DNA of 64,000 bases from assembly GCF_000143415.4 (NCBI RefSeq), contig NW_003314315.1:682001-746000 (forward strand), read 5' to 3'. Below are positions 4,078 to 54,168 of this stretch, piece by piece. Numbering within the stretch: the stretch's first letter is position 1; each line of letters begins with the position of its first letter. Under the pieces are notes generated by a model. The model did no database searches. It was not told where the DNA came from and was given only the letters and a program-made list of their open reading frames with translations. A program made the translations under genes and the position numbers. The DNA is from Selaginella moellendorffii (Eukaryota; Plantae; Lycopodiophyta).

Positions 4078-4238
4078 TGTAGTGCATGTGATCATGGGAT
4101 GAGATTGGATATATTGTCACTATGGATTTTTGAAATCTTAGAGGATAAATGGGGATAAAATAGCTGTTAAGAGCTCTCTTATAAAACAATTATCTTTTGT
4201 CTAGTTGACTTAAGGGGAGAGAGATAAGGTGCACTACA
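4078..4238 (+). mobile_element. Isolated TRIM-type LTR (161 bp)
   Basis: tgtagtgcatg...ggtgcactaca is a reverse-complement homolog of the TRIM LTRs at 19984-20144 and 21070-21231. No clean TSD. Confidence 0.8.
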
Positions 4239-4239
4239 T

Positions 4240-10400: not shown

Positions 10401-10759
10401 TCATTTTCATCATTGAAGAGAATAATAACTTCATCCTTCACTCCTTGCACAGTTAGTTGTGAAACTGATACGCTCTCCTCTCCTCCCTTCAGAGATCCTG
10501 TAACTAGAATCTCTTGATTTGTACATCTATCAAGATCCCATTGAATCCCATTCTCTCCCATACCATTGTCGAGAAAAATGGATTTTTCAATTTGATTACT
10601 TTTATCCCAACATACATTCTCCAAACTAACTAATCTTGGCTTCAACTTAAATTTTTTGCAGAGGAAGTTCTCTCCTATAACACTCTTAGAGAAAACAATT
10701 GGAGGCTCTTGATCGAACTTCAAGTAGAATTCTCTCATATTTTCTCCTTGCTCAAGCAC
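7487..10759 (-). pseudogene. MULE/Mutator-like DDE transposase with N-terminal Cys/His zinc module and C-terminal SWIM zinc finger; decayed
   Basis: Motifs in order: KCHKCGATLVCQACC...HIGYHQH (~10075-9955); FKMFTLGP.GVDLVQQM...WIHFDHMERVSGW (~9520-9398); FRVFMVDATSANWLAIRQVF (~9178-9118); FAWWEI.MFQWGH; PTINLFESKH (~8735-8704); PSCT(Y)PDF...CKHIYYIF (~7660-7575); stop at 7487. GT-AG intron ~9670-9727. Several stops and frameshifts. Confidence 0.75.
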
Positions 10760-11359
10760 TTAGAAAAAATCTAGGGAGAAATTGACAAGAAAGAACAAAG
10801 ATATTCTTCTGTATTGTGAGCATTAATTAGCTGTGTCCTTGCAAAGGACAAGTTAATTATTTTAACAAAATATACAACTGTTTAGAATCTAGAGAGATAT
10901 GAGAATCTTAAAGATCCACCTATATTTATTGTTTAATTGATTGTGAGAGGAATAATATTGTTGAAATGAATGTGGTTATGAGTGAGAAGCGTTAGTCAAT
11001 CACAAAAGTTGTAACATTGATTGCTTATTCTCCCTCTCATCTCCATGCTTTCTTCCCTTCAAGAGAGTTTTATTCTTTTGTGACAAGTGAGAGAAAGTCA
11101 AACTCGGAAAGGTTGGTTTGTGCATGGTTTTTTCTTGATTGAAGCATTGAAGCATTGAAGCACATTGAAGTGTTAAATGATTGTGTCCATTAATTGCCAT
11201 CAAAGAGAATGAAAATCATGACTATTGATCTTGATTGTTGATTGTGTCTATTGATTTTTAGGGTTTAACACCTAGGGTTTGAGTAGCAAAGGGCGAAAGA
11301 AAGCATTTCAATTTAGCAATGTGCTTCAAGACACTCCTCAAACAAGGTATGCTTTCTTG

Positions 11360-12088: not shown

Positions 12089-13859
12089 TGTAAGCGACTA
12101 AATTTTCCATTCTACTTTAGTCACTTAACCACACCTCTGACCACTTGGAGGAGTCTCATTCATAACCTCCATAAGTCCAATCCAGGACTTGGGACTTGCT
12201 AGCCCCGAGAATGGCATCCATGCCACTCAACATTTGCACTTGGTCCAAGTGCTCCACGTGTCCGATCCCATAACCGACACTCAAAGGTACCATCGACATA
12301 GCAGCCCGTTACGCTAAGGCCATGCCCAATCACCTTTGCCACACTAGTAGTCCAATACCACTTGCATCACAGTCTTGGCTCTCCAAGACTGGGCCATCTG
12401 TCCACGAGTGGTCATCCTAGATCCACTCCTTAGCATCCTTAGGATGCCCACAGACCGGGGGAATTGCCTTCCCCAAAGTCCCTTTGTCAATTCCTACCAA
12501 GTCCCTTTCTGCCCCTGGCCGTGTTTGCCAACACTGCCACTGGATCGAGGCCCACAGGCCCGACCACTAAGTCCCACGGTCCTCTGGGACTTCCTCACCA
12601 CACGACTGTGTCTTTGGTCACTACCCCAGAGGACTGCTCCTCTTCCTTTCCACAGTCTAGGCCTTTGGGACAACATTTCGGAACACCATGGCCTTACGCG
12701 AGCCACCTGGGTACTCTCCCCGCCTTTCGCCTTTAGGTGCTCTAGCCATGGGCTTAGAGCAAGGTTCCGTTGAGCCACGCCTGGTATCCAAGTAGGTAGT
12801 GCCACCCACATTTGGACTGGGAGCATCGGCCAGTCGATCTCCTGGGGGAACTAGAGCCGGCTCTTGAACACTTCACCAAGCTACCCCGCTTGTCGGTCCG
12901 TATTCACTCTAGTCTTGGACTTCCCAGTGGTCAGTTCATCACCCAACACTGGGTCTGGCCTTCCTGGGCCAAACTGGCTCCACTGCAGTCCTCCCCCTAC
13001 TATACTTTTGGAGCTCACCAAACCCCCCAGGGTTTGGGAGACGAACGCTTTGGGCTTTCACCCTCTCAGGCTCGAATTCGGACTCGGACTCGGACTCGGA
13101 CTCAGACTCGGACTCGGACTCGGACTCATGCTCGGGCTCGGTCTCGGCCTCGGCCTCGGTCTCGTTCTCGGTCCCGATCTTGGTCTCGGTCTCGGTCTCG
13201 GTCTCGGTCCCGGTCTCGGTCTCGACTTCGGACTCCATCTCGGACTCCATCTCGGGTCCATCTCGGACTCCATCTCGGGTCCATCTCGGACTCCATTTTG
13301 GGTCCATCTCGGACTCCATCTTGGGTCCATCTCGGACTCCATCTCGGACTCCATTTTGGGTCCATCTCGGGTCCACCTCGGACTCCATCTCGGACTCCAT
13401 TTCGGGTCCATCTCGGGTCCACCTCGGACTCCATCTCGGGTCCATCTCGGACTCCACTTCAGACTCCAACTTGGGTCCATCTCGGACTCCACTTCGGACT
13501 CCAACTCGGGTCCATCTCGGACTCCACTTCGGACTCCAACTCGAGTCCATCTCAGACTCCACTTCGGACTCCAACTCGAGTCCATCTCGGACTCCACTTC
13601 GGACTCCAACTCGAGTCCATCTCAGACACTTCCACGTGTCATGTGTTGGTCCTTTTGGGTCCCTTTTTGGAGCCTCGCTTTTTGCTCGCTTCGTGCTCGT
13701 TCCTCGAGCACTTCTTTGGGAGTTCCACTCTCGCTCTTGACTTTTCAAGTCGGAGCTTTTGGTCCAAACGTGTTACGCTCGTTTGGCTCTCGCTTCAGCC
13801 ACTACCACGTGGCACCCTTTCCGGCTCCACTTTGGGGCCTAGGGATTTTGTGTCTCACA
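12089..13859 (-). mobile_element. Solo LTR, family A (1771 bp), TSD AGGAA
   Basis: tgtaagcgac...gtctcaca with aggaa on both sides; reverse complement of the LTRs at 23809 and 29624. Confidence 0.95.
13070..13630. repeat. Hexamer-based array (GGACTC/GGTCTC/CATCTC) inside LTR-A; homologous arrays at 24040-24555, 29860-30365, 33815-33990, 52055-52230, 57080-57425, 63420-63655
   Basis: Directly visible 6/12-bp periodicity; explains the long low-complexity ORFs. Confidence 0.95.
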
Positions 13860-16794
13860 AGGAAGCACCGAGGCCAGCCTCAATGGTCTTGGTCTCCAGG
13901 AAAATGCAATTGGCTTGATCACTATGGGCTTGGCTAATTGAGTGGAGATTCATCTCAAGTATCTAATGAAGTTTTTGCTAGTCATATTAGAAGCAACGAT
14001 GAGCATAACAACAACATGGATGTTGAAATGGACACTCAAATTGATATTGGTGTTATTGAGGCTGTTGGTACTGGTGCTCCTGAGGCTGCGGCTAATGGTG
14101 GTGGGGTACTTGTGTCTGATGTTGGTGGTGGTGGCGTACTTGTGTCTGATGTTGGTGGTGGTGGGAGTGTTGTACTTTCGGTTGTTGAGGCTGCTCGCAG
14201 CGAGGTAGATGAACTAGCTGAGGAGGTTATTGGTAGCGTTGTAGGTGGATCTATTGTAGAGGCTACTGGGGGCATGGTAGCTGCTCCTACTGCTCCTCAG
14301 GCTGGTGGTGCAGGGGGAGCTAGTGGTAGTGTGGGATTCTGCATGCATGATTCTGACACCATCTTGAATGATCATGTTCTGGGCATGATTATCCAAGCTC
14401 AAGAATGGACAGTTAATAAAGTGTTATCAGAAATGGTGTGGAACCCTCATTGATTTCTAGTTCCTTTGTGCTAGTTGGTTCAAAGCCATTGGGTGCGCTT
14501 AGCTTACGACCTCAACATGGCTATCTACAATTCTTTTGCCGAGGTCAGGTTTGGGAGCACAACTGGTACCTTCATCATTTCACCAACTTTCCCTAGAACC
14601 TGCTGGATAGAGTTAGTGACTACTAAACTTGAGGAAAATGGGATCCTATATGGTTGCGAAAGTCTCATGAGTTTGATGGATATTTAGGTCAACATGTGGA
14701 GACAGTAGGGTTCATTGGAAATTTTTGGGTGATCAATGGAAACCATAGGTGGCTAGCATTTTGGAAGTGCATTCAAGAGAAGTTCTGAGATGACGAAGAA
14801 TGACACATTAGTGTTCCTATCACACTTGTTAAACCAATAACTCGAGAACACACTGTGAAGCTCAACATGGCATGCCATAAGATCAACATGTAAGAATTTA
14901 TTTTTTGTAAACTTAGCCAATATCGTGTTTTTGCAGGCTAAACCAATTTGCGTTTCAAGCTCATATATTGGTACATGACATTGAGCACCTTTGGTTTATC
15001 GGCATGCTCTCGCTTCAGGAGGTCCAAATGTTGTGCAATCGTGAGGTATTTGAAGCAATTCAAGTGAAGCTAATAGCTAGGAAAGGCCAAGAATTGTAGA
15101 TTTGGTACTAGCTACCACTTGATTTTCTAGTTGCTGTCTGGGTGAAGGTAAATTAGTATTGAAGTATGTATCGACTTACATAATGTTTCTTGCAGCCCAT
15201 AATCAAAGGAGAAAGATCCTCATTCTTTAAAAATGCCTGAGGGAACGAGCAGTAGAAGGAGATGGAGTGGCATGCGATTGAGCAGTGAATTTTGAATATG
15301 AAGAGAACAAAGGTGAAAAAGTTGCTCTTGATTGTAGACATACGACGTGGGCAGGAATGGCTTGATAGCATTGCCGAGATTTGTTCTCACGTTCGTAAGT
15401 TCTTCTAAAATTTATGAAACATTTCATAACTCTTTGTGTGTGTAAGAACTAGTAAAGCACCGGAGGAACTTATTTACAACATCTCCAAGAGTAAAATGTC
15501 CTTTGTTGAACAAAGCATCTGCTTGGAACTTCTCAACACTTGGTTGCGAAACAACGAAAAAACACTACAAGATAAGGATGGAGAAGGTGATGAAGGAGAG
15601 GGTGTACATTTCTCAGAGTATTGCCACTAGTGAGGAGATGCTACAAGTCTGGGATGAAAAGTTTCTTTTCAGCACCCACACAAGTATCACTCTTGAAGAG
15701 TATATTCATGCTTGTCTTGTGGAGTGAGGGAATGGTTGTCTTTCACATGGTGGGACAAGTTTGGCTGAGTTCAAGAACCAACCAGGACAACCATTTCTTG
15801 CGAGGTGCATGGTTTACAGGTATTTTCTCAATTCTCATTTATATATTGGTATTTATATTTTTGTTTTACTTTGTAGATATTTAAAATATTGCCCCGGCAC
15901 ACCGGTATACACAGCCGGTGTTTTGCAGAAGCTTCTGACTAGAGGCAAGAAGTTTGGGATGTATGAGCCAGAGTTCTACTGTCCTTGTACACATGAGAGG
16001 GAGCTATGCCCATGGTACCTTGAACTCGTGGAGTAGATGCCGACATCGGACTTCGAGCTAGATCTCTACCTTGAATGCCATCCAAGTTCACTTGAAACTT
16101 AGCACTTAGCTAGGAAATATTAACTTTGAGTTATATTCTTATTTTCTAGAGGCTCTTTTTGATTGTGATAACAACGTTGTTGAAGTTTAACAACTAAACC
16201 TAGGAGTCCACACTTAGGAAACCATTTAGGAGATGCCAAATCCAAATACCATTGAACTAGAGGAAATTGTACAGGAAATTCTAGCACAAGAGATTCCAGT
16301 ACCTGCTCCTCGCAACCCCCAAAGGGGCCATCATGCAGCCTTTCATGAGAGTAAGGACTTTGATTTGGAACATTCTTTTATTCATTCTTGACTTCACTTT
16401 TTTTTTTTAAGATGTTGCAGAGAGCAACTATCAGTCTTCTTGGCGGACTAAGACATTCTTCCCATCCCTCCCTACGGCTACAGATGACAACCTGGAAGAG
16501 CTCTCCTCTGCAGCTATGCATAAACAGGTTTGTAAGCATGAATTTTATCTCCAACTTTTAGTTCTAATAATTGATTTTCAGGTTCACCTTCTATCCCCAA
16601 CGGTCAGTGTTGGGGAAGTTGTTGTTCTCATTGGGGATTACACATAGCTTTTAGATGCTACTAGTCGAGAGCTTTACATGCTTGATCGGTGGATCCATGA
16701 TCTGGGTCAACTCACACCTTATGGGAAGATCAATTTCATCTTTTTCGATCCACCATTGCAGGGGGATACTCCTTCATGGAATGTGTTGTAGGCC
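13860..16794 (+). pseudogene. 5' part of a ParB-like/amino-methyltransferase gene (acidic low-complexity N-terminus, ParB/Srx-like domain, MTase motif IV)
   Basis: FWVINGNHRWLAFWKCI (GNHR at 14738-14749). V..LIGDY...GKINFIFFDPPLQGDTPSWNVL (DPP at 16747-16755). Short GT-AG introns (~14890-14937, 15146-15196, 15820-15876, 16528-16581). In-frame stops. Confidence 0.7.
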
Positions 16795-19645
16795 TTGAGA
16801 TGGGGTCCGAGATTGAGTTCGAGATCGAGTCCAAGACCGAGTTCGAGTACTAATATAGGTCAAGGGGTGAAAGCCCAAAACGTGCATCTCCCCGGGGGGG
16901 GGGGGGGGGGGGGTTGTAGGGGTTCCAAAAGTGTAGTAGGGATAGTTAGGTCTAGGAACCAGTCTTGAAGGAACTCTCCAGTGGTGTTTCCAAACTGACT
17001 TGAGGTTGAGACTAGGGTCGAGGGGCCTTGGGTGGGAGTGAGCATGGTCTCGGGTGGTGCCGGAGGGGCCACCCAAGGAAGTGCTCAAGAGCAACTCCCA
17101 CTCCCGAAAGGGAAACCAACTGTAATGCTCCCGGCTCATGTGGAGTGGTGCCCCACTTGAGTACCTTGCGGCTTATTGGTCCTTGCCCTTCTTAGGGGCT
17201 TGGGCCTTCCCTTCGGGATGGAAGTGGGGGGGTAGAGGTACCCATACCGAGCCGTTAGGCCACGGTGTTTCGCCCCGGCTTCCCGAAGCATGTGTTGCAC
17301 CCAAGACTTGGGATTTAGAGGGTCTTATAATCAAGTCTTATGGTACCAAGGGAGGTTAGGAATTTGGAGGCTTGGTGTGCTTGGCTGCTTGTGCCTGTGG
17401 GGAGTGTAGCCGAACTTTAAGTCCAGTCTAACTCGGGGAGGGGGATTAAGAGAGATTTGGGAATCCGTGGATGAATGGCTAACACTCTATTGCTCATGCA
17501 GTGAGTAGCTGAAACCAAGTAGGACTAAGTAGGAGCTAGTACCATAGGTAGAAACCTTGGCGAGGAAACCCAGCTAAAGCCAAGGCAGTGTTAGTCGAAT
17601 AGACGAGGTAAGCTGGCAAATTGGAAAGGAAAAATTTATGGCTTACAATTTGGTATCGGAGCCTTTTCCTCAATTCTAGCGAAGGATAGAGGCGGATTGT
17701 TAGGAGATGGCAAAGGCAGGGTAGAAACGAACCAAGGTGGAGACGGAACCTCCTCCAGAGCTGGAGCCTCCAGTCGAACAAGAGGCTATGGATGAGGAAT
17801 CCTTGTATGAGGAGGACTCCAATGAGGAAACTTCCAAATAGGAATCCAGTGGTGAGGTTCGGTCGTCCAAGGCTCGATTGGACATTCTAGAAGGACAATT
17901 GGCATAGACCAATGCCCTATTGGAGACTCTCATATGCAAGCTAAAGCGTGACGAGAAGCGAAAGAAAAGACAAAAGAATGCAGATGCTGGCAGTGCAGAA
18001 GGTGCGGATCCTTCAATAGGGACTGAGGCAAAACCAAACAAAGTCGAACAGACCGAAGTGGAATCAGTCCCTCAGGCAGTTCCCAAGTATAAACAAAAGC
18101 CCCCACCGGTCTTCAAGGGAGTGAACGATTATAAAGTGGTGGAGGATTGGTTTTACGATATGGAGGATGACTTCTAAGCATTGCAATTATCGAGCTTGGA
18201 GAAGGTCCCATATGCAAAACCATACTTGGCAGATAATGCCAAGTCTTGGTGGAGAACGACAGAGGCCAACGAAGGACCGATGGCCACTTGGGAAATGATG
18301 AAGGCGAGGAATCGCACGACTTACATTCCTCCGAATGCTACTCTGCATCTAAGAGACGAGCTGAATAAGCTGAAGCGGACCAGAACCATTCAGGAGTATG
18401 TGAATGGGTTTATGGCAAAGAAGATACTTGTCATGGACATGGGGGATATGGATGCGTTCCATGCCTTCATATCATGCTTGCAAACCTGGGCTCGTAGTGA
18501 GGTGATGCGTTGAAACCCGACCAACTACAAGGAAGCATTGGATGCGGCCATTAAGGTGTATCAACGATAACTTACGAAAGGGGAACACGATGGGGTCAGG
18601 GTCCACGTTTAGCAAAGGGGCCAAACCAAGGGGAATGTATAGCAAAGGGAAATTCAAGAAGAGTTTCTTTAAGAATGAGTCCTCAGGGTTCCAGAAAGGC
18701 AAATCTGGTGGCCAATGAGCAAGTACATGGGGGAGTCAAGCAAAAAGAGATAAACCCACGGATAAGAAGGTCAAGTCAGTTAATAGTGTGGGAAACAACA
18801 TATACTACAACTGTGGTGAAGTGGAACACTTTTCGAGGGAATGTCCTTACCCGAAAAAGGCCAGAGCCAATATGCCATTAAGTCGGGTGAAATCCAAACT
18901 AAGGTATGTGATCCAGTCCCCTAACTCAAAGTTACTCATTACACGAGCAACTTTGGTAGAGAGTCGTTCGCAACATTTACTAACCCTCCGAGGGAAGCTT
19001 GAAGGTAGCTTTGTTAAGATCCTTATTGATACGGGTGCTTCAGATAATTTTGTGGCTCCGACAAGCCGGACTATGGGTGCAGCGGCTGGGCGAATCAAGG
19101 ATTATAGAGTTTGTTCAAGATAGCCAAAGCACCGATGAGGTACTTCAACAAGCGAGAGTCGAAGTAGGGACATGAAATTAGAAATGGATTTCACCGTGTT
19201 CGACATGGCGGGATTTGATGTGATCTTCGAGATAGATTAGTTCAATTGGTTCAATTGGTACCGGACAAGGTAGGAACCTTGTGGTACTAGCGAATACCCA
19301 AGGAAGAAGATCCAGGGTGGAGGCCCAAGATCTAAAGGTAGGGCAATGCAAGGCCAAAGATTCCTGCCTAAACCTAGTGTCCACAAGAGGACAACTCACT
19401 ACAGGGACTAAGGCAGCATTTTTGTGCTTACTCTCGGTGAAGAGTGACAAAAAGACGGGAATAGAAGTAGTACCTTTAGTGATCCAGCGGGTGTTGGACC
19501 AATTCCAGGATACCATGCCAAAGGAGTTACCGGTGGGGTTGCCCCCTGCATGACCGATAGAACATAAAATTGAGCTGGTCGAGGGTGCTGAGGTGGTGGT
19601 TTATGCCCCCTATCGTTTGAAGGAAAAGGAACTTGAGGAGCTCAA

Positions 19646-19983
19646 TATAACGTATGTGGTTTTGACCTTTATCCTATGGTGATTTACCATAGGATAACAC
19701 CACGAAGCGGAACCTAAACCCTCCATGTGCCACGTGTCATATGCCACGTGTCCAAAGGATAGTGGTATGGAACCCGAGGTTCAAAACCTTGGGCCACTAA
19801 ATGAAGGAACGGTGCCAAACTCCCAAGCATGGAGCCAAGGAGTGACGGAACCGAACCACGAACCAACTCCCGAGCATAGAGCCCAAGGAGCAAAGGGACA
19901 GGAGTTTGGAGCGACTTGGAATAGTCCTGGAGCAACCAGCATCCCAATGCCAGGACCAGCACATAAAACGGAGCCAAACGGAT
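19646..19983. mobile_element. LTR-like fragment (family D) inserted at the start of RT of element B
   Basis: Pol homology stops at EEL (19645); homologous to 4250-4533. Confidence 0.65.
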
Positions 19984-21231
19984 TGTAACGCACCTTATCT
20001 CTCTCCCTTAAGCCAACTAAAAAAGGGGCAATTGCTTGATGAGAGAGCTCTTAGTGGCTATTTTATCCCTATTTATCCCCCAAGGTTCTAAGGATCCACA
20101 GTGACAGTATATCTAAATCTCATCCCATGATCACATGCGCTACACTCACCCCCCCTTTAGAGATGTTAATATCCTCATTGACTATTGATTAACAACCCCT
20201 ACTAAGCCCCCTTTAGAGATGTTAATATCCTCATTGACTATTGATTAACAACCCCTACTAAGCCAAGGGGAACCAACACCTCCATTTCCGCACTAAATTT
20301 ACCAATCCTTCCATTGTGTAGACTAGTTATTCCATGTGAGGCAACTAGTCATTCACACGTACCACAGTCTCACGGTGGATACTTTTGCCCGTGGATACTC
20401 CACACAAGAGGAAGGACGTACGCATGGATGCCCAATACGTACGATTTCAAATTTAGGGGTAAGAATATACCTTGCTCAAGGGTATATTATATTTTTAAGT
20501 AGCCACTAATAAATGGGAATCGAACCTATGCCATTTGCTCCAATACCAACTATAGCGCACCTTATCTCTTTCCTCTTAAGCCAACTAAAAAAGGGGCAAG
20601 CTTCAAGACCACGCTTCTGCTGCGCCACTCTGATTTCGCGCGTTCCATGAACCATTTACATTTGGCCTTTCTAGGTACTAAGCCTATCTAAATCTCATCC
20701 CATGATCACATGCGCTACACTCACCCCCCCTTCAGAGATGTCAATGTCCTCATTGACTATTGACTAACAACCCTTACTGAGCCAAGGGGAACCAACACCT
20801 CCATTTCCGCACTGAATCTATCAATCCTTTCATTGTGTAGACTAGCTATTCCATGTGAGGTAACTAATCATTCACCCGTACCGCAGTCCCACGGTGGATA
20901 CCTTCGTCCGTGGATACTCCACACAAGAGGAAGGACATACGCATGGATCCCCAATATGTACGATTTCAAATTTAGGGGTAGGAATATACCTTGCTCAAGG
21001 GTATATTATATTTTTAAGTAGCCACTAATCAATGGGAATCGAACCCGTGCCATTTGCTCCAATACCAACTATAGCACACTTTATCTCTCTCCCCTTAAGC
21101 CAACTGGAAAAGGGGCAATTGTTTGATGAGAGAGCCTTTAGTGGCTATTTTATCCCCATTTATCCCCCAAAGTTTCAAGGATCCACGGTGACAGTATATC
21201 CAAATCTCATCCCATGATCATATGCGCTACA
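19984..21231 (-). mobile_element. Tandem-array TRIM: three ~161-bp LTRs and two ~350-400-bp non-coding internal domains
   Basis: LTRs at 19984-20144, 20551-20719 and 21070-21231. Minus-strand PBS tggtattggagc after LTRs 3 and 2; PPT aggggggtgag before LTRs 2 and 1. Confidence 0.9.
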
Positions 21232-22369
21232 AAAGAGAAGTTGAGGAAGGCTCTCGTGTTGGCGTTACCAGACTTTGGTAAGGACTTTGAGGTAGAAACG
21301 GATGCTTCGGACTTTGTGTTGGGTGCAGTTTTGAAGCAAGACAACCATCTAGTAGCGTTCTTCTCAAAGAAGTTGAACAAGGCTTAACAGAAGTGGCCTG
21401 CCCATGCGAAGGAATTGTTTGCAATGGTCAAGATGCTCAAGGAGTGGTGACACTACCTTGGGAAACACTTCAAGGTTTACACGGACAATATGGCAACGAA
21501 ACACTTCTTGTCACAGCCCAACTTGAGAGGGAAACAGGATCGGTGGGCCAATGCTTTGGCCAAGTTTGATTGCGAAATTCTGTACAAGCATGAGAAGAGC
21601 AACATCGTGGTGGATGCGCTAAGTCAAAAAGCGAGCTTGAAGTTGGCGATATCCAGCACAACAGCAACCTTTTGGGATGATGTGCAGATAGCATATGAGA
21701 ATGATAGTCTAGCACAAGAAGTGTTGCTAAGGAATCTAGAAGCACAGGAAGCTCACCAAAGAGGTGAGCTGCCAACAGAAGAGAAAACGGGCTATGTAGA
21801 ATGCAATGGACTCATCTATTACAAGTAAACAAGGGTGTATGTTCCAAAAGGGGAACTAAGGAAGGTAGCCTTAGAAGAGTGTCATGACAGACCTCTTGCA
21901 GGACACGGCAGAGTGCCCAAGATGATGGGCTTACTCAAGAGGAAGTACCATTGGCCAGATATGGCTAAGGACGTCCAAGACTATGTAAAGACATGTCCAA
22001 CATGTCAGCAGATCAAAGGCGTGATTAAGGCCAGTGGGGGCTTGTTACAAAGCATCCCAATTCTAGATCGTCCGTGGAAATGTCTTACAATGGACTTCAT
22101 CACGGGACTCCCCCCAAGTGAGGGGTTTGATGCGATATTCGTGGTGGTGGACCGATTTTCGAAGATGGCACATTTCATACCCACCACAACAGAAGTGGAT
22201 GCGGAATGTGTGGCAAAGCTATTCTTTGAACAAGTGGTTCGAGTGTGGGGAAGGCCAGAGGAGATCATCTCAAATCGGGATAAGATCTTCACCAGCAGGT
22301 TCTGGAGAACTCTCCTAAAACAGTATCGCACCAAGTTGAAATTCAACATAGCCTATCACCCACAGACAG

Positions 22370-22416
22370 GTATTGGGTATTAAGTTAAGTTGGATGGCAC
22401 TAACACTTCTTGACAG
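22370..22416 (+). other. Spliceosomal intron (47 bp) in the integrase core
   Basis: ACAG|GTATTG...CACTAAC...TTGACAG|AT; removal restores HPQT-DG(Q)TERVNRQLEDYLRSYV. Confidence 0.85.
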
Positions 22417-22834
22417 ATGGATAAACAGAAAGGGTAAATAGGCAGTTGGAGGATTATTTGCGAAGCTATGTCTCCGGAGACTAGATTGATTGGGTAAGTC
22501 ATTTGGGACTTGTGGAAATGTGCTATAACAACTCACCACACTCAAGTATCGGGGTGAGTCCATGGGAAGTCATCAATGGGCGAGCTATTGAAGGTCTTGT
22601 GGAACTCGGCATGGCCGAGTATCATAGAGAGTTACCCGCAGTGGAGGCATTCACAGTGGAAAGACTCAACATTTGGAATCTAGTGAGGGATTCCTTGGAA
22701 CAAGCTCAACAAAGGCAAACCAAGTATGCGAATCAGAAGCGTTAGGACGTAAAGTTCCAACTTGGGGAGAAGGTGTGGCTGAACACCAAGAACTTAAGGC
22801 TACCAAGTGGGATTAGCCAAAAGTTGACTCAAAG

Positions 22835-22885
22835 GTAAGATGCATGTATTCTTGGAAATGAACTAATCTTGAGTTCCTTAAGCAG
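22835..22885 (+). other. Spliceosomal intron (51 bp) before the integrase GPY/F motif
   Basis: AAG|GTAAGA...ACTAAT...GCAG|GT; removal restores KLTQR-FVGPY; the unspliced frame hits TAA immediately. Confidence 0.85.
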
Positions 22886-22945
22886 GTTTGTGGGGCCTTA
22901 CGAGATTGAGGCACAAATCGGTAAAGTGGCTTACCATCTCCGACT

Positions 22946-23368
22946 NNNNNNNNNNNNNNNNNNNNNNNNNNNNNNNNNNNNNNNNNNNNNNNNNNNNNNN
23001 NNNNNNNNNNNNNNNNNNNNNNNNNNNNNNNNNNNNNNNNNNNNNNNNNNNNNNNNNNNNNNNNNNNNNNNNNNNNNNNNNNNNNNNNNNNNNNNNNNNN
23101 NNNNNNNNNNNNNNNNNNNNNNNNNNNNNNNNNNNNNNNNNNNNNNNNNNNNNNNNNNNNNNNNNNNNNNNNNNNNNNNNNNNNNNNNNNNNNNNNNNNN
23201 NNNNNNNNNNNNNNNNNNNNNNNNNNNNNNNNNNNNNNNNNNNNNNNNNNNNNNNNNNNNNNNNNNNNNNNNNNNNNNNNNNNNNNNNNNNNNNNNNNNN
23301 NNNNNNNNNNNNNNNNNNNNNNNNNNNNNNNNNNNNNNNNNNNNNNNNNNNNNNNNNNNNNNNNNNNN
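22946..23368. other. Assembly gap (N run); second gap at 31706-32118
   Basis: N bases. Confidence 1.
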
Positions 23369-23808
23369 GGAGACTACACTCAACTCCCCACGAGGATGTC
23401 GAATCCGTAGACATATTCTACAGAGGTTGGGTTCGAGTCCCAACCCCCTAGTAAAGCAAGGCTGGGTTCAAGTCCCAACCCCATACTAGGGCATGGTGGG
23501 GTGAGGGGTATAGGGACACCTATATTCTGTTGTTATGGGCTCTTGGCTGGGGAGGCTAACTTAGGCACACCGCTAAGTGGGGGGATGCCCCTAAAGACAT
23601 GGTTAACAAGTCATAGGATTAAAAAAAGACGTTCGATGTGGGCATCAAATTTCTTTTATGGGTGGTGGAGTTGTAAGGAACCAACTCCCTGAGGTGTTGT
23701 AGGCTAAAGGATCCCCGAAAGCATGACCGAAATGATAAAGAGTTCATCGGATGGGACCGAGTCTGAGATCGAGTCCAAAACCGACTTTGAGACCAAGTTC
23801 GAGATTGA

Positions 23809-26800
23809 TGTGAGACACAAAATCCCTAGACCCCAAAGTGGAGCCGGAAGGTTGCCACGTGGTAGTGGCCGAAGCGAAAGCCAAACGAACGTAACACGTT
23901 TGGACTAAAAGCTCCAACTTGAAAGGTCGACAGCGGGAGTGGAACTCCTAACAAAGGGCTTGAGGAACAAGCACGAAGCGAGCAATAAGTGAGACTCCAA
24001 AAAGGCACCCAAAAGGACCAACACATGACACGTGGAAGTGTCCGAGATGGAGTCCGAGATGGACCTGAGTTGGAGTCCCAGATGGAGTCCGAGGTGGAGT
24101 TCGAGGTGGAGTTCGAGATGGAGTCCGAGATGGACCAAGACGGAGTCCGAGATGGAGTCCGAGGTGGAGTCCAAGATGGAGTCTGAAGTGGAGTCCTAGA
24201 TGGACTCAGACGGAGTCCGAGATGGAGTCCGAGATGGAGTTCGAGATGGACCGAGACGGAGTCTGAGATGGAGTCCGAAATGGACCGGAACGGAGTCCGA
24301 GATGGACCTGAGATGGAATTCGAGATGGAGTCCGAGAAGGACCTGAGATGGAGTTTGAGGTCGAGACCGAGACCGGGACCGAGACCGGGACTGAGACCGA
24401 GACCGAGATCGAGACCGGGACCAAGACCGAGACCGAGGCGGAGGCCGAGACCGAGCTCGAGCCCGAGTCCGAGTCCGAGTCTGAGTCCGAGGCCGAGTCC
24501 GAGTCCGAGTCCGAGTCTGAGTCCGAGTCCGAGTCTAAGTTTGAGTTTGAGTCTGAGAGGGTGAAAGCCCAAAGCGTTCATCTCCCAGACCCTGGGGGGT
24601 TTGGTGAGCTCCAAAAGTATAGTAAGGGGGAGGACTGCAGTGGAGCCAATTTAGCCAAGAAAGGCCAGTTTGGCCCAAGAAGGCCAAACCCAGTGTTGGG
24701 TGATGAATTGATCACTGGGAAGTCCAAGACTAGAGTGAATACGGACCGACAAGTGGGGTAGCTTAGTGAAGTGTTCAAGAGCTGGCTCTAGTTCCCCCGG
24801 GAGATCGATTGGCCGATACTCCCAGTCCAAGTGTGGGTGGCACTACCTACTTGGATACTAGGCGTGGCTCAACGAAACCTCGCTCTAAACCCATGGCTAG
24901 AGCATCTAAAGGCGGAAGGTGGGGAGAGTACCCACGGGGCTCGCGTAGGCCCACGGTGTTCCGAAATGTTGCCCCGGAGTCCCAAATGGGGGAAAGGAGG
25001 AGGAGCAGTCCTCTAGTGTAGTGACTAAGGATACAGTCACATGGTGAGGAAGTCCCAGAGGACCATGGGACTTAGTGGTCGGGCCTGTGGGCCTTGATCT
25101 AGTGGCAGTGTCGATGGACATGGCCATGGACAGAAAAGGGACTTGGTAGGAACTGAAAAAGGGATATTGGGGAAGGTTATTCCCTATGTCTGTAGGCATC
25201 CTAAGGATGCTAAGGAGTGGATCTGGGTTGACCACTCGTGGACGGATGGCCTAGTCTTGGAGAGATGGGATTGTGATGTAAGTGGTATTGGACCACTAGT
25301 GCGGCAAAGGTGAATGAGCATGGCCTTAATGTAACGGGCCGATATGTCAGTGGTACCTTTGGGTGTCAGTCTTGGGACCAGACACGTGGAGCACTTGGAC
25401 CAAGTGCAACGGTTGAGTGGCACGGGGGCCATTCTTGGGGCTAGCAAGTCCCCAAGTCTGGAATAGGATTTATGGAGGTTGTGAGTGAGACTCCTCCAAG
25501 TGGTCGGAGGTGTGGTTAAGTGACTAAAGTAGAATGGAAACTTTAGTCGCTTACAACTTGGTATCGAAACTGTTCCTTAGTCCAACTTTTATTGGTGCTC
25601 AAGTATACCACCATTGATATTGGCATCGGAAGGTCCTAGGAGTGGGCCTATCCTTAAGGAGTAGCATGTTGAGAGGACATGGCTCTCCACTCAAGTTCAT
25701 GCGTGAACTTGGGTGCGATGTGGTGGATAGAAAAGGGGCCAGTAAGGGAACGACTTTGGGATCTTGGGAACAGTATAAGGGTTTCCTCAGAGAGTTGAGG
25801 ATGTGATTTAGATGAGCGTTTGACTTAGCAAACTGGCTGATGTAGTTGTGGTAAACAACTACAGTTGGGATCACGAGAAAGATGCAGACTCCAAAATAAT
25901 AAAGGAGTCACAAGATAATCCGCACATAGTTGAGGCTGGTGCTCATGAATTTGAAACCGTAATTGATGACCATGAGAGGTCAAGTACGGATGAGGGCAAG
26001 AGCCCTTGAAATGGTAGTTGGGGCTATCTTTTATAAATGCTGGAACGAACCCAAGGAGTTGAGGGTGTGCTCAAAGAATGAGTCAGCATTCTCATCATGG
26101 GGACGGATAGTCCTAAGGGGCAAAAGGCAGCCCACAGAGAACGGGAAATAATGAAGTGTTAGAGTAACACTTGCAAGATGGTCCTTATGAGTAGGACATG
26201 AATACATGAAGTTGTATTCGAGTGAGCTGGCACCTCAAAAATAGAACCTTATGGGTCGTTGGTTTAGTGAAGTCCAAAAATGCTGGATGACTCAAGTAGG
26301 GTCAAAGAATGGTCCTAAGGGATTGGTTGAAGCATTTAGACTGAGGTGTATGCTGCCCCATGAGGTATGGGGAGGATCATAAGATCCAAGTATGAGAACA
26401 GGAGATATTTCATTGATGGCAGAATGTGCCATACTAAAGTTGTGGGAAAGATGTTCCCAGAAAAAAGCAACTTTGGCCCAGAGTTGGGGACAAACATTAT
26501 AGTGCGGTGCTAACGGATAGTTAGCATGAGGCACAACTATATTGGTCTTGGCAAAGACCTAGACACTAATAAGTAGTGTCATAAGGATAGGCTCATGGGG
26601 CCAATGGTGTGGAGATACCAAATGTGCCAAAGTGTGATACCTTAAGGTTATGTTGGTGGGTTCATAAGAACCCCTTGCCAAAGGGAATCCCAAAGGAAAT
26701 GGGAATGGTATAGCATAAGTTGGAAGGCATGTGGTAGAGTGGGGTGACCAAAACAATTATGGAGGTGTAGAAGCACCAACAATGAGTTGTAGAACTTGAC

Positions 26801-29800
26801 AACTATGAGGCAACTAAGCAAAAGGTGCAAGATAATTGGTCAAACTAGTAGAAGGTAGTTACCCAAGATTTCTTAATGGCATAAAGAAGTTAGATATACC
26901 CTTACGAGGGATAAATTGCTTATGTTGCGATATAGTAAGTCAATGTCATAAAAGGGAATGCTCATTGTCAAACAGGCCATCATTTGGGACACCAAAACAC
27001 TCTAGGACACCGGGAGGTGGTGTTTGATGTCGCGAGGGCAATAGATAAAGCCCAAGGGAATAAGTCCCTAGCGAATGATGGATAGAAGGTGCTATTCAAA
27101 TGTCCAAGGTTGCGGAGACGGGAGAAGACTGTCAACCCAAATTGGACAAAGCCAAAGATGGAATTTTGGCAAGGCTAGTGATGGGCATATAAAGGCACAT
27201 AAGCAACAACATTAATCCTGGTGTGTGGGATTATAAGGTGAGCATACCTGGATTGAGGAACCACTCCCTAGGCTATTGGGTAGGTTCATCCCTAAGAATA
27301 CTTGCTAAGGCATGATAGAAAGTGCGAAGCTATCCTCCTAGTTTGGAGGAGAATGACCGAAGGAAAGGTGTGAAGCCAAAAGCAAGTAGTAAGGGGATAA
27401 AACCAAATTATAGAAATCGAAGGGCATAACCAAGGGTGGTTATGCCAATTGAGAGTGGAGAATCAAGTGGGGGCTCGAGGGTGTTGTTGCTAGCAACTGT
27501 GATGCCATGAAGAGTCTAAAATATGGAATTGTCTATACTAGACTATATGGCAACTAGAAAGCTTGCGAAAAGGGAGGCCTTAGCAAACTAAGGGACAAAG
27601 TTTCTTCAAGGTTCCCAAAGACGATTCTAGGTAGCTTAGTACCTAGAAAGGCCAAGTGTAAATGGTTCATGGAACGCGCGAAACCAGAGTGGCGCAGCAA
27701 GAAGCATGGTCTTGAAGCTTGCCATGAGGCAAGGCTATCAAGGTTAGGGAAGTAGTTCCCAAGTGTTCAAAGAGAGGGCTTTGAATAAAGGTCGATGGTC
27801 AAGGACTTTCACGCATATGCAGGAACCATGTTACGGTGGTCGGAGGACTTGCCAAGCGAGATTGGCAAGACGGGGGAACAAATACCCGAGTTGAAGGTGA
27901 TAACTTCAAAAGGGTGGGCCAGGGGGCCAAGCATGGAGGAGTCCATGCATGATCACAGACATGTCAAGTGAGAAGACTTGGTAGTGTGGAGGAACTAGGT
28001 TCCTAAGCTGTGATCTATAGCGCGCTTTAAATATAAGTTGGTGCACCGGCGTGGGGAGTCACGCCAGGCATCCAGGGTGATGCCGTCTGTAGATGCATAT
28101 ACGGAGGTTGGGTTCGAGTCCCAACCCTCTAGTGCTTGGGTTAGAGTCCCAAATCACTAGGGCGTGGTGATGGTTTGGAATATGAGGACACTCATATTTC
28201 GGTGGTCATAGACTCTCAATGAGGAGACTGGTTTGGGCACACTGCCAAGCGAGGGATGCCTCGGAGTCATGATGCACAGTTAGATTGCTTAGAGTGAAAG
28301 CTCGGCATATCTAACTTGAACACTTTGGTGCAAAGGGCACCAAGGACGTGGTGAATGAGATGGGGACACCCAGTCTTAGTTGCTATGGATCCTTGGCCGG
28401 AAGGGCTGGCTTGGGCGCACCGCCAAGTGTGGGGGATGCCCCCGGGGTCATAGTCAACAACTTAGAAGAGTCTGGAAGACCTAGTTCCTATTGGTAGACC
28501 TATTAAGGGGTCAAGATGATATCACTAGGTGATCTTGTGGCTAAACAAGGACAAGGTCTTTGTTTGGGTTAAGGGATATGATTCCTAATTCAAAGTGTTA
28601 ATTTGAACTATTGATAATGGTGTGGCTTGGTCAAGGTGACCAAGTGGGAAGAACACCTATGGGAAATGAGCTATATCACTGCTATGGCATAGAAAGTTTG
28701 AAGAAAGTAGTCTCTATAAGAGATCCGAGGGTCTCAAAAGTTAGACCATGGATAGAGCCCACAGTAGAAAATGCTAAAGAGACGTACTAGGGGTGAACAC
28801 CCTCTGGACCTGGCAAAGCAAAGTGTTTGCTTGGAACTGAAAGGAAACCTCGAAAGTGGAAGTAGCGATCCTATGTTGCTGGGTGCAACAATCAAGGATA
28901 GGAGCAAAAGACTAGTGGCTAAGAAAAAAGCCATGGGAATCATGAGAAAGAATCCAAATGGCAAAGTTAGGCCAAGAACACTAATGTGTTGGGTGCTAAC
29001 AGATTGTGGGAAAGGCAATATTTCCCCAAGGGTGGATTCCCAACCGCTCCAATTTGGCAAAAGTGGATGCTCCAAAGGGGGGAGCGGTAAGGTAGCCAAA
29101 TAATAGGGCCATGGGTAGCCCTAGCACCAATTATGATAACTGGAACTTAGTGCCAAAGGTGGCACGATATCGAAGAAAGGATGATAGTACCCTCAATTTA
29201 AGAACTTCCTAGGATAAGGAAGTGGAGTTGCACCATGTGCAACGTAAGGTATCGAAGACATCTAGGAAATTGACTGTGAGAAGTCAAAGTTAAAAGTTCC
29301 AAGTGCAAAGGTTATGTCCATGGAATCTGAGACTACTCGAGAATGAGTAGTGGAATTGAGTTAGAGAGGGTGTCTCTAACCGGTTTAGCGGGAACTAAAC
29401 CAATAAAAGGGAGCAAACCACCCCAGGTGGTCGAGTGAGTCTCTAGGTTGGAGAGACTATGCTCCTTAGAGGATGGACAAGTCATGGTGAGCCTTCGGTG
29501 TCAAACCATAGACAAATATTGGCTGGGTGCCAAGGATGGAAATGGTAATACATGCGGATGTTACTTTATAAAAGAGTTTACTGTTCGATGAGGACATCGA
29601 ACTTCGTCTATGGGTGGTGGAGTTGTGAGACACAAAATCCCTAGGCCCCAAAGTGGAGCCGGAAGGGTGCCACGTGGTAATGGCCGAAGCGAAAGCCAAA
29701 CGAGCGTAACACGTTTGGACTAAAAGCTCCAACTTGAAAGGTCGAGAGCGGGAGTGGAACTCCCAACAAAGGGCTCAAGGAACAAGCACAAAGTGAGCAA

Positions 29801-30223
29801 TAAGCAAGACTCCAAAAAGGCACCCAAAAGGACCAACACATGACACGTGGAAGTGTTCGAGATGGAGTCTGAGATGGACCTGAGTTGGAGTCCGAGATGG
29901 AGTCCGAGGTGGAGTCCAAGATGGAGTCCAAGATGGAGTCCGAAGTGGAGTCCGAGATGGACTCAGATGGAGTCCGAGATGGACTCAGATGGAGTCCGAG
30001 ATGGACTTCGAGATGGACCGAGATGGAGTCCGAGATGGAGTCTGAGATGGACCGGGACGGAGTCCGAGATGGAGTCCAAGATGGACCCGAGATGGAATTC
30101 AAGATGGAGTCCGAGAAGGACCCGAGATGGAGTCCGAGGTCGAGACCGGGACCGAGACCGAGACCGAGACCGGGACCAAGACCGAGGCCGAGACCAAGGC
30201 CGAGACCGAGTCCGAGCCCGAGT

Positions 30224-30264
<41 letters not shown>

Positions 30265-31363
30265 GCCGAGTCCGAGTCCGAGTCCGAGTCCGAGTCCGAG
30301 TCCGAGTCCGAGTCCGAGTCCGAGTCCGAGTCCGAGTCCGAGTCCGAGTCCGAGTTCGAGTCTGAGAGGGTGAAAGCCCAAAGCGTTCGTCTCCCAGACC
30401 CTAGGGGGTTTGGTGAGCTCCAAATGTATAGTAAGGGGGAGGACTGCAGTGGAGCCAGTTTGGCCAGGAAAGGCCAGTTTGGCCCAGGAAAGGCTAAACC
30501 CAGTGTTGGGTGATGAACTGACCACTGGGAAGTCCAAGACTAGAGTGAATACGGACCGACAAGCGGGGTAGCTGTGAAGTGTTCAAGAGCTGGCTCTAGT
30601 TCCCTCGGGAGATCGACTGGCCGATGCTCCCAGTCCAATTGTGGGTGGCACTACCTACTTGGATACCAGGCATGGCTCAACGGAACCTCGCTCTAAGCCC
30701 ATGGCTAGAGCACCTAAAGGCGGAAGGTGGGGAGAGTACCCACGGGGCTCGCGTAGGCCCACGGTGTTCTGAAATGTTGCCCCGGAGTCCCAAATGGGGG
30801 AAAGGAGGAGGAGCAGTCCTCTAGTGTAGTGACTAAGGATACAGTCACATGGTGAGGAAGTCCTAGAGGACCATGGGACTTAGTGGTCGGGCCTGTGGGC
30901 CTTGATCTAGTGGTAGTGTCGACGGACATGGCCATGGACAGAAAAGGGACTTGGTAGGAACTGAAAAAGGGATATTGGGGAAGGCTATTCCCCATGTCTG
31001 TAGGCATCCTAAGGATGCTAAGGAGTGGATCTGGGTTGACCACTTGTCGACGGATGGCCTAGTCTTGGAGAGACAGGATTGTGATGCAAGTGGTATTGGA
31101 CCACTAGTGCCGCAAAGGTGAATGGGTATGGCCTTAGCATAATGGGCCGATATGTCAGTGGTACTTTTGGGTGTCAATCTTGGGACTAGACACGTGGAGC
31201 ACTTGGACCAAGTGCAACGGTTGAGTGGCACGGGGGCCATTCTTGGGGCTAGCAAGTCCCCAAGTCCGGAATAGGATTTATGGAGGTTGTGAGTGAGAAT
31301 CCTCCAAGCCATTGAAAGTGTGGTTAAGTGACTAAAGTAGAATGGAAAATTTAGTCGTTTACA
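23809..31363 (+). mobile_element. Complete non-autonomous LTR element of family A (LARD-like), nested in the 3' LTR of B; TSD ATTGA
   Basis: LTRs 23809-25555 and 29624-31363; PBS tggtatc at 25559; PPT atgggtggtggagt; attga on both sides. The 4-kb interior has no long ORF. Confidence 0.93.
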
Positions 31364-32314
31364 ATTGAGTCCGGGATCGAGTCTGAAGCTGACTTGGAGA
31401 CCGAGTTTGAGATAGATTCGAGATTAGGTCCGAAGTTGAGTCCGAGATTGGGTCCGAGATCGAGTCCGAGACCGAGTCCGAAGTCGGGTCCAAGATGGAG
31501 TCCGAGTCCGAGATCAAGTCTGAGACCGAGTCCACGTACTAATACAGGTCAAGGGGTGAAAGCCCAAAGCATGTGTCTCCCCGGGGGGGGGGGGGGGGGG
31601 GCCTTAAGGGTACTTCTCATTTTTTTCTGGCTAAAGGGGTCTACGAAACAATTCTATGAGAAACAACACATCTTATCTTCAAAGTGTACTCCACGTAAAT
31701 CCCGANNNNNNNNNNNNNNNNNNNNNNNNNNNNNNNNNNNNNNNNNNNNNNNNNNNNNNNNNNNNNNNNNNNNNNNNNNNNNNNNNNNNNNNNNNNNNNN
31801 NNNNNNNNNNNNNNNNNNNNNNNNNNNNNNNNNNNNNNNNNNNNNNNNNNNNNNNNNNNNNNNNNNNNNNNNNNNNNNNNNNNNNNNNNNNNNNNNNNNN
31901 NNNNNNNNNNNNNNNNNNNNNNNNNNNNNNNNNNNNNNNNNNNNNNNNNNNNNNNNNNNNNNNNNNNNNNNNNNNNNNNNNNNNNNNNNNNNNNNNNNNN
32001 NNNNNNNNNNNNNNNNNNNNNNNNNNNNNNNNNNNNNNNNNNNNNNNNNNNNNNNNNNNNNNNNNNNNNNNNNNNNNNNNNNNNNNNNNNNNNNNNNNNN
32101 NNNNNNNNNNNNNNNNNNGAGATTTGGGAATCCATGGATGAATAGCTAACGCTCCATTGCTCGTGCAATGAGTAACTGAAACCAAGTAGGACCAAGTAGG
32201 AGCTAGCACCATAGGCGGAAACCTTGGCAAGGGAACTTATCTAAAGTCAAGGCAGTGTTGGTTGGATAGACGAAGTAAGCTAGCAAATTAGAAAGGAAAA
32301 ATTTATAGCTTATA

Positions 32315-35012
32315 GTGGTGAATGAGATGGGGACACCCAATCTTAGTTGCTATGGACCCTTGGCCAAAAGGGCTAGCTTGGGTGCACTGCCAAGTATGGG
32401 GGATGCCTCCGGGGTCATGGTTAACAAGTTAAAGGTCTGGAAGACCTAGTACCTATTGGCAAACTTGTTCAGATGACCAAGGTTAGATCACTAGGTGATT
32501 TTACGGCTAAATAAGGATGAGGTCCTTATGAGGTTAAGGAATAAAGTTCCTAGTTCAAAGTGTTGATTTGAACTATTAATAATGGTGTGGCTTGGTCAAG
32601 GTGACTAAGTGGGAAGGACACCTAAAGGGAAATTAGTTGTGCTAGTACGATGGTATAGCGAGTCCAAAAAAGTAGTATCTAGGAAAGACCTATAGGAGGG
32701 TCACAAAGTTGGGCCATTAATGGAGCCTCTAGTAGAAAATGCTAAAGAGACCTACTAAGGGTGAGCACCCTCTGGACTTGGCAAAATAGAACTTTTATCA
32801 TGGAACCAAAAAGATACCTTGAGAATGGAGGTAATAATCTTATGTTGCTTAGTGCAATAATTAACGAATAGGAGCAAAAGACTAGTGGCCAAGTATGGGC
32901 CATGAAATTCATTGAAATGAATCCAAATAGCAAAGTTAGGCAAGGAACACTAATGTTTTGGATGCTAACGGATTGTGGGAAAGAAAATGTATTTCTAAAG
33001 ATGGATTCCCAAATGCTTTAATTTGGCAAAAGTGAAAATTCCAAGGGAGGGAGCGGCAAGGCAGCCAAATGATAGGGCCGTGAACAACCCTAGCACAAGT
33101 GATGGAAAAATGAAATTTAGTGCCAAAAGTTGACATGAAATAGAAAAGAGAATGATGCCCTCAAGTAGAGAACTTCCTAAGATGGGGAAGTGGAGACTAC
33201 ACAATATGTGCAATGTAAAATGTTGGAAACACCCAGGAAATTGACTTTGAAAAGTCAAAATTAAAAGTTTCAAAGTGCAAAGGTTATATTGATAGAAACT
33301 AAGACTACTCGAGATTGAGTAGTGGGATTGAGATAAAGGTGTCTCTAACGAGTTTTAACGAGAACTAAATGAATAAAAGGGAGAGAACCACCCCAAGTGG
33401 TCGTATGAGTCTCTATGTTAAAGAGATTATGCTCCTTAGAGGATGGAAAAAGCATGGTGAGCCTTCAGTGTCAAACCATTGACGAATATTGATTAGGTGC
33501 CAAGGATAGAAAGGGTAATACATGTTGGTGTTACTTATAAAAGGGTTTACCATTCAATGAGGACATCGAACTTCATTTATGGGTGGTGAAGTTGTGAGAC
33601 ATAAAATCCTTAGGCCCCAAAGTGGAGCCGAAAGGGTGCCACGTGGTGGTGGCTGAAGTGAAAACCAAACAAGTATAACACGTTTGGACTAAAAGCTCCA
33701 ATTTGAAAAATTGAGAGCGAAAGTGAAACTCCTAACAAAGGGCTCGAGGAATGAGCACGAAACAAGCAGTAAATAAGTCTCTAGAAAAAGGACCAACACA
33801 TGACATATGAAGGACCTGAGATAGAGTCCAAGATGGAGTTTGAGATGGATTCGAGATGGACCCGAGATGGAGTTTAAGATGGACCCGAGATAGAGTCTAA
33901 GATGGAGTCTGAGATGGACCCAAGATGGAGTCTGAGATAGAACCGAGACTGAGACCGAGTTCGAGTCCGAGTCCGAGTCTAAGTCCAAATATTAATACAG
34001 ACTGTTAGGTGAAAACCCAAAGCGATCATCCCTCGAGGGGGGAGGGGGGGGGGGGCGCTACAAGGGGTTCCGAAAGTATAGTAAGGAGAGTGTGGGGGTT
34101 AGATCCTAGTAGTGCCAGTTTGGCTAGGAAAGGCCAGTTTAGCCCAGGAAGGCTGTACCCAAGTGTTGGGTGATGAGATAACCACTGAGAAGTCCAAGGC
34201 TAGAGTGAATATGAATTAATAAGCGGGGTAACTTAGTGAAATGTTCAAAAGTCAGCTCTAATTCCCCTAGGAGATTGAATTGTCAATGCTCCCAATCCAA
34301 CTATGGGTGGCACTACCTACTTAGATACCTAGCATGGCTCAATAAAACCTTGCTCTAAGCCCATGGCTAAAGCACCCAAAGGCAAAAGGTGGGGAGAGTA
34401 CTTATAAGGCTCATATAGGGCCATGGTGTTCTGAAATGTTGTTCCAAAGTCCCAAGCTATGGAAAGGAAGAGGAGTGGTCCTTTAGTGTAGTGACCAAGG
34501 ATACAGTCATGTGGTAAGGAAGTCCAGCGGACAATGGAACTTAGTGGTCAAATCGGTGGGCTTTATCCCAGTGGTAGTGTTGGCAAACACGGCCATCGAT
34601 AGAAAATGGACTTGGTGGGGACTATAAAAGGGATATTGGGGAAGGTTATTCCCCATGTCTGTGAGCATCCTAAGGATGTTAAGGAGTGAATCTAGGATGA
34701 TCACTCATGGACGGATGGCCTAATCTTTAAAAGACAGGATTGTGATGTAAGTGGTGTTAGACTATCGGTGTGACCAAGGTGAATGGGCATGGCCTTAGCA
34801 TAACAAGTTGAAATGTCGATGGTACTTTAGGGTTCAATCATGGGAGGAGCACTTGGACCCAGTGCAAGGGTTAAATGGTATGGATGCCATCCTCAGGGTT
34901 AGCAAGCCCCAAGTCCTAAATTGGACTTATGAAGGTTGTGAATGAGATTCCTCCAAGTGGTCGGAGGTGTGATTAAGTGACTAAAGTAGAATAGAAAAAT
35001 TAGTCACTTCTA
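32315..35012 (+). mobile_element. 3' half of an older family-A element (interior plus 3' LTR 33593-35012)
   Basis: Colinear with 28348-31363; begins with TSD gtggt; followed by ataat. Confidence 0.9.
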
Positions 35013-53900: not shown

Positions 53901-54168
53901 CTACATCAACTATCATTTATGAAATGATATGACAATTCCAAATATGTACCCTCTTCCCCACACTGATAATTTTCTAAACCATTTTAGGTGAAGTCATTAG
54001 TTCACCAACTTGAATCTTGCTTATTGGTATTGGCAAGTTCTAATGGCTAAAGAGGATATTCCCAAGACTATTTTCTATATATCATTGGTTTATACAAGTT
54101 CTTGATGATGCCATATAAATTGAGTAATACTTCAACAACTTTTCAACAAATAATAGAGAAGGTTCTTT

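Follow-up and report, generated by a model that had tools for sequence, protein, structure and literature searches.

The window, that is, the whole 64,000-nucleotide stretch of Selaginella moellendorffii DNA analysed here, contains a decayed LTR retrotransposon whose integrase coding region is split by two short inserts (Table 1). The element has long terminal repeats, a primer-binding site, which we take to be of the plant tRNA-iMet type, and the order gag-PR-RT-RH-INT, with integrase after RNase H and RT mostly missing, and is thus a member of the Ty3/gypsy group.

Table 1. Parts of the intron-bearing element, with positions counted from the first letter of the window.
Feature	Position	Strand	Remarks
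5' LTR	16784..17647	+	864 bp, TG..CA ends, 20-G tract at 16894-16913
Primer-binding site (PBS)	17651..17663	+	13 nt, equal in length to the tRNA-Met PBS of SM1-Galahad in the available text of PMC3350952
Degenerate gag (CCHC knuckle), protease (DTGAS), first RT residues	17707..19643	+	stops, frameshifts
Foreign non-coding insert	19644..21231	.	~1.6 kb in place of ~260 missing RT codons
RNase H and integrase exon 1	21232..22369	+	Pfam PF17917, PF17921, PF00665
Intron 1	22370-22416	+	47 nt, phase 1, GT..CACTAAC..CAG, 5 codons 5' of the catalytic Glu
Integrase exon 2	22417..22834	+	418 nt; catalytic Glu, helical region, start of SH3/GPY domain; 3 in-frame stops
Intron 2	22835-22885	+	51 nt, phase 2, GT..ACTAAT..CAG, within the SH3_Tf2-1 (GPY/F) domain
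Exon 3 start (FVGPY...)	22886..22945	+	interrupted by assembly gap (N, 22946-23368)
Second LTR of the same family	23695-23808 + 31370-32314 (span 23695..32314)	+	~1059 bp including 413 N, 19-G tract

Exon 1 encodes the HHCC zinc finger, the first two catalytic positions and a terminal YHPQT; it aligns to residues 1099-1267 of the Ty3 integrase (7q5b), the HPQT end falling on residue 1267, and with the PFV integrase as far as HPQS. The second catalytic Asp position is Asn in this copy, the stops of exon 2 lie at 22422, 22482 and 22743, and the chromodomain region would fall in the assembly gap. Because of the exon 2 stops, the Asn, the frameshifts in gag and the replacement of RT, the window copy is dead. 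No target-site duplication linking the 5' LTR and the second LTR was found, and their pairing is thus only presumed; over the 196 bases that can be compared, they are 24 transitions and 1 transversion apart. Within the insert in RT, which has no coding match, there are a direct repeat of 393 bp (92%) and pieces with matches in 4078-4922; it may represent a small element, LTR-type or TRIM-like, that is nested here.

The second LTR is interrupted by a nested 7.6-kb LTR element (23809-31364). Its own LTRs measure 1.75 kb and are 89% identical; it has a target-site duplication of 5 bp, a tRNA-Met-type PBS and a 4-kb interior without a match to 240 gypsy proteins. Related LTR pieces are very common in the window (12089-13860, 33592-35009, 51841-53264, 56229-57426, 62768-63890). 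Since its LTRs and those of the intron-bearing element, which is Galahad-like (see below), have GAGTCCGAG-type repeats and end motifs in common, the nested element is probably a non-autonomous partner family of the latter. A distant gypsy element of ~5 kb on the reverse strand (37660-42647; 175-bp LTRs, 97% identical; gag-PR-RT-RH-INT) is decayed as well; its HPQS motif contains no intron, only a plain frameshift, and relatives of it lie at 49946-55785. Four copies of a ~290-bp element, 97-100% identical and in both orientations (6170-6465, 49659-49952, 54165-54458, 55938-56231), look like a recently active MITE. Two of these sit inside an older gypsy copy.

The remaining features include a bulb-type lectin gene (880-1620), whose ORF at 1006-1620 is 91% identical to SELMODRAFT_420673 of S. 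moellendorffii (B-lectin family in the ESM Atlas), as fits this species or a very close one as host, and a decayed duplicate (76%) of its 5' part at 36911-37376. A lone fragment of large-subunit rRNA, corresponding to positions 1456-1888 of the Rfam model RF02543, lies outside any rDNA array at 6708-7132 on the reverse strand. Two decayed multi-exon regions (13938-16780 and 7800-10800) are transposase-like or gene-like, with candidate introns of 47-57 nt; the ORFs tried from them gave no Pfam match.

As the earlier note on this DNA had described, the two inserts in the integrase have GT donors, CACTAAC and ACTAAT branch points and YAG acceptors, both of the latter being CAG. The combination GT..CTRAY..YAG occurs in only 3 of 200,000 random 47/51-nt segments of the window. 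Removal of both inserts gives a single frame through YHPQT^DG and KLTQR^FVGPY, and their retention leads to stops at 22381 (intron 1) and immediately 3' of the intron 2 donor, inside the SH3/GPY domain, again in agreement with that note. The note had placed the first break in an HPQT^DGQTE motif; the site is right, but DGQTE is not intact in the window copy, where the stop at 22422 intervenes. Its statement that the sizes match host introns holds for the 47-57-nt candidates of the window, but these are only five, hand-picked and predicted, in gene-like regions.

We scored the spliced, half-spliced and unspliced forms against an integrase HMM built from 60 homologues. The spliced form scored 436.3 bits, the form keeping intron 2 418.2 bits and the unspliced form 269.6 bits. 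When each cut was shifted from -15 to +15 (31 shifts each), both GT-AG cuts lay on the top-scoring plateau of the HMM score; the plateaus are due to short direct repeats at the intron borders, intron 1 bearing one of 5 nt. The spacing from the second catalytic position to the Glu is 35 residues after splicing, the same as in all 160 of the 242 homologous proteins in which it could be measured, and this D-(35)-E spacing, together with an unbroken GPY/SH3 domain, exists only in the spliced frame.

Transcript data show these introns being removed. In the run X18, which is classed as RNA by guess only, although one matching contig as against thousands in DNA argues for a non-genomic source, the sole contig matching the element (1083 nt, depth 9.4, <90% alike to the window copy) begins near 22044, extends 279 nt past 22945 and skips exactly 47 and 51 nt, both GT..AG. 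Intron 1 is also skipped by one raw read of the RNA run X21, with 41 letters on its short side; the same event can be inferred from the depth bins (150 letters over 197 positions), which come from the same reads and are not a replicate. Expression of the family is very low, with 5, 1 and 0 reads in X21, X22 and X23 (~12% of each run, ~1.4 Gb each), and X20 (0 contigs) and X23 carry no weight on splicing. The evidence that the introns are excised from RNA is thus thin but direct, and the junctions sought in the earlier note are present, one for intron 1 in X21 and both in X18. Overall, 22370-22416 and 22835-22885 are real spliceosomal (U2-type) introns of a Ty3/gypsy integrase, with GT donor, branch point and YAG acceptor, exact excision in RNA (in a small sample) and presence in DNA.

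The six raw reads of X21 and X22 all lie within 22246-22817, the 3' 700 bases of the stretch compared, and none lies in 21230-22245; this clustering and the start of the X18 contig may reflect 3' bias or a short integrase-tail transcript, the reads being few.

At all 11 exon positions listed for both RNA and DNA data (22296, 22318, 22422, 22436, 22464, 22486, 22626, 22657, 22794, 22814, 22915), the spliced RNA has the letter of the DNA majority, and it differs from the window copy at all three exon 2 stop codons. Its source is therefore a family-typical member; a domesticated host gene, which we considered as the source, is rejected on the same grounds.

The earlier note had gone further and proposed a splicing switch with three outputs: none, an integrase lacking its GPY/chromodomain tail, or the complete enzyme. 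If regulated, such a switch could alter the rate or the target site of integration. The anatomy permits this, as retention of intron 2 ends translation at the donor inside the SH3/GPY domain. However, the data give the proposal no support: the only transcript across both sites is doubly spliced, and in this very small sample of one contig and one junction read nothing supports a form with intron 1 removed and intron 2 kept. A truncated SH3/GPY domain would also be likelier to disable the integrase than to retarget it, and we consider such a three-state switch very unlikely.

Both introns are family-wide and are kept in the bulk of the DNA copies, the condition that the earlier note had set for its inference. 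In the DNA run X1, 15,995 contigs align to 1.7 kb of the element, with both introns covered. The summed depth per bin is 2.4e5-1.2e6, compared with 118-277 for the single contigs listed; it is not a copy number, but it is in line with the "hundreds of copies" given in the literature. Inside intron 1 the summed depth is 405,600 (at 22386), with 653,462 at 22346 and 331,112 at 22422 on its two sides, and the bins over intron 2 have 241,853 and 579,867. No second copy of the integrase was found within the 64-kb window itself. The refuting outcome named in the note, inserts confined to this dead copy and not spliced at all, is contradicted on both counts.

No intron skip was seen among the best 15 of the 48 X1 joints (lowest listed depth 147) or among the listed loose ends, and none of 104 contigs of the run X7 skips either intron; judging from its depths, X7 could be the same species' DNA at thin coverage, and it is counted neither as a second species nor as independent evidence. 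Listed X7 contigs bridge all four splice sites with at least 31 letters on each side. Their depth is ~130 for the majority type and 2-5 for others, and the majority intron 2 is longer by one base. Junctions can be hidden in short repeat contigs. Intron-less DNA copies are accordingly absent or very rare, a single one at about single-copy depth being compatible with the X1 joints.

Such a copy is the basis of another explanation, in which one or a few intron-less retro-copies make both the RNA and the integrase and the intron-bearing majority rides along. The remaining 33 of the 48 X1 joints each apparently lie below a depth of 147, which is about the depth of a single contig, and the template cannot be read from RNA contigs; both leave room for a master of this kind. 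Against it stand the joints and X7 contigs just described, and a self-sufficient intron-less copy would be expected to outgrow the others. We regard this explanation as the least probable of those considered here, and even if it were correct, the inserts would be true introns.

By its layout and measurements, though not by sequence, the element is likely SM1-Galahad, described from S. moellendorffii by Novikov, Smyshlyaev and Novikova (2012; PMC3350952). According to the available text of that paper, SM1-Galahad is ~7.5 kb long, with LTRs of 1076/1146 bp, tracts of 11-25 G and a 13-bp tRNA-Met PBS; it has a long ORF of 3885 bp that closes with the core integrase and two short ones behind it, of 316 and 309 bp, the second short ORF carrying the chromodomain. 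For the window element, we estimate ORF1, read as far as the stop inside intron 1, at ~3869 bp, with the RT gap counted as a length only (260 aa, the median of 39 homologues); between the introns, the ORF starting with ATG measures 318 bp, compared with the published 316, and ORF3 falls in the assembly gap. The two are also alike in host, poly-G tracts in the LTR, 13-bp PBS, CCHC gag, a long ORF to the core integrase with two short ORFs and a highly repeated state. The SM1-Galahad LTR exceeds 1 kb, as does the second LTR of the window with its gap included; the 5' LTR is shorter. In a quick tree of 41 integrase rows, which carried no labelled clade references, no supported set includes the window row.

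The difference lies in how the breaks are read. In the 2012 survey, they are given as ORF ends and the split as three ORFs, the words "intron" and "splic" occurring 0 times in the available text, and no intact copy of SM1-Galahad was reported (PMC3350952); in the window element the breaks are spliced introns. The same text describes a sister family in the Galadriel/Galahad chromovirus clade, SM2-Galahad, given at scaffold_24:1030224-1037576, with hundreds of copies, an intact copy with 99.7% identical LTRs and a single 4731-bp ORF that includes the chromodomain (PMC3350952). Its size and PBS are similar, but its ORF is unbroken, so that, on the published description, it apparently lacks the integrase introns.

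This sister family provides the main rival to our interpretation. In that scheme, the intron-bearing family is in effect unable to integrate on its own: it has its unspliced RNA packaged, the integrase comes from the intron-less SM2-Galahad, the introns are tolerated as passengers, and host splicing yields the spliced RNA as a by-product. The rarity of family RNA and the contrast between the two families in the available 2012 text, where an intact copy is reported only for SM2-Galahad (PMC3350952), speak for this. However, unrecognised introns would yield the verdict "no intact copy" in any case, splice signals are complete in both inserts, whose removal re-establishes the frame exactly, and the three stops of the window copy are missing from the spliced RNA. 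The identity of exon 2 to outside homologues still reaches 40% (median 32%), which also argues against a passenger role; the corresponding values for exon 1 and RH are up to 51% and up to 54%. Complementation would, moreover, leave the absence of retrotransposed spliced RNA to be explained. On balance, we consider it unlikely.

Among outside homologues, the motif at site 1 is unbroken in 107 of 120. Identity to the nearest proteins found is only ~50%, and this site is unbroken in the two best short matches; three relatives from a viral collection (L001-L003, 42-45% identical) are in one frame across site 1, and two of them, L002 and L003, also across site 2. A pattern scan for an intron at HPQ[TS]^DG, with CAC and CAT variants, gave 0 matches in viral contigs. 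Two metagenome matches, obtained with the CAC variant only, lie in unrelated genes and are due to chance. Because the outside homologues are mostly unbroken at site 1 and no other split integrase was found, the introns look, from these comparisons, like a gain in the lineage of the window element, probably after its split from the intron-less SM2-Galahad.

As to the source of intron 1, the 47 bases directly upstream match it at 19 of 47 positions at exactly that lag, with the same first four letters and the same last five (p ~0.02 before correction and 0.075 when the three final bases are left out, in one of four tests made). This is only suggestive, but intron 1 may stem from a tandem duplication, within the element, of the last 47 bp of the exon. 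Introns 1 and 2 are unlike each other (p 0.41), intron 2 is unlike its flanks, and a shared introner origin is therefore unsupported.

Penelope-like and DIRS/Ngaro retroelements transmit spliceosomal introns through replication, but they are not LTR elements with a DDE integrase, and their replication chemistry is different. Among LTR elements of plants, a 2025 review, in the part available, recognises introns in general only in Ogre and EVADE (PMC12786077). The view in the earlier note that introns of LTR elements mostly tune the Gag/Pol ratio or env overlooks Ogre, a legume Ty3/gypsy element whose genomic intron, according to the available text, lies between ORFs and must be spliced for translation of RT-RH-INT (PMC6317226) and whose transcripts are only partly spliced (PMC6317226, PMC4408406, PMC12786077). 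The window element resembles Ogre, as far as these sources go, in that introns are kept in DNA and splicing is needed for downstream Pol enzymes; unlike Ogre, it has two introns of host-like size inside conserved integrase motifs, affecting integrase only, and the PR-to-RT linker of the window copy has no intron-sized break of the Ogre type.

BARE1, EVADE and Drosophila copia likewise have spliced RNA next to unspliced RNA, but these are Ty1/copia elements in which splicing removes Pol for extra Gag, the opposite of what is seen here (PMC3735527, PMC5580714, both as far as the available text goes). BARE has a capped spliced pool that serves translation and an uncapped unspliced pool, initiated at a different start site, that is packaged, and the available text reports that spliced RNA was not found copied into DNA (PMC3735527). 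Foamy viruses, too, make integrase from a spliced, non-genomic RNA; in the text available, this is a separate Pol mRNA formed by removal of gag, without short introns within the integrase (PMC7828637). We found no report in the literature of introns inside the integrase of an LTR element; subscription papers, Repbase, figures and the primary paper on Ogre may bear on this point. Splicing-dependent Pol expression with retention of the intron in the genome was thus known already; what is new is its position in the active-site region of the integrase and its occurrence in a very abundant family.

Taken together, our results favour a model, to which we assign a probability of about 0.6, in which the introns are kept in DNA and spliced from RNA, the unspliced RNA likely being the replicating form and the spliced RNA supplying the integrase. 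Since the introns are retained in DNA copies, the unspliced RNA would be the template for new copies; it would also encode Gag-PR-RT-RH with an integrase stump that lacks the catalytic Glu. The fully spliced mRNA would encode the whole Gag-Pol, and its integrase would join the particles via Gag-Gag assembly. No read over the interior of either intron was seen among the six raw reads of X21 and X22, and unspliced RNA was accordingly not seen.

Because intron-less DNA copies are absent or very rare, the spliced RNA would be largely barred from replication. This poses a puzzle, as the spliced RNA should bear the same 5' signals and yet leaves no or almost no DNA copies. The likeliest solution would be two pools as in BARE, with a capped, spliced RNA that is translated and a separate unspliced RNA that is packaged or that alone completes reverse transcription. 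Alternatively, a packaging signal could overlap the introns, or RNA marked by exon junctions could be excluded. As a side effect, the amount of integrase would be capped relative to Gag and RT. A stronger version, for which we see about even odds, has an autonomous chromovirus acquiring two introns of host type, in the catalytic core and the GPY domain of its integrase, and then spreading to hundreds or thousands of copies that retain both, its spliced mRNA being strictly barred from replication.

Retrotransposition is classically recognised by the loss of introns in passage through RNA. A very abundant family with two tiny introns in the active-site region of its integrase must sort its RNA strictly. 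The spliced and unspliced RNAs differ by 98 nt near the 3' end, which offers a clean system for studying the choice between translation and packaging. If the autonomous version is true, the last step of transposition would be gated by host splicing, with integrase made from fully spliced mRNA only. The apparently intron-less sister in the same genome would make this a rare, datable gain of introns within a retroelement. The introns would also account for the published three-ORF oddity of SM1-Galahad, and they serve as a warning that splicing may be all that lies behind a family recorded without an intact copy.
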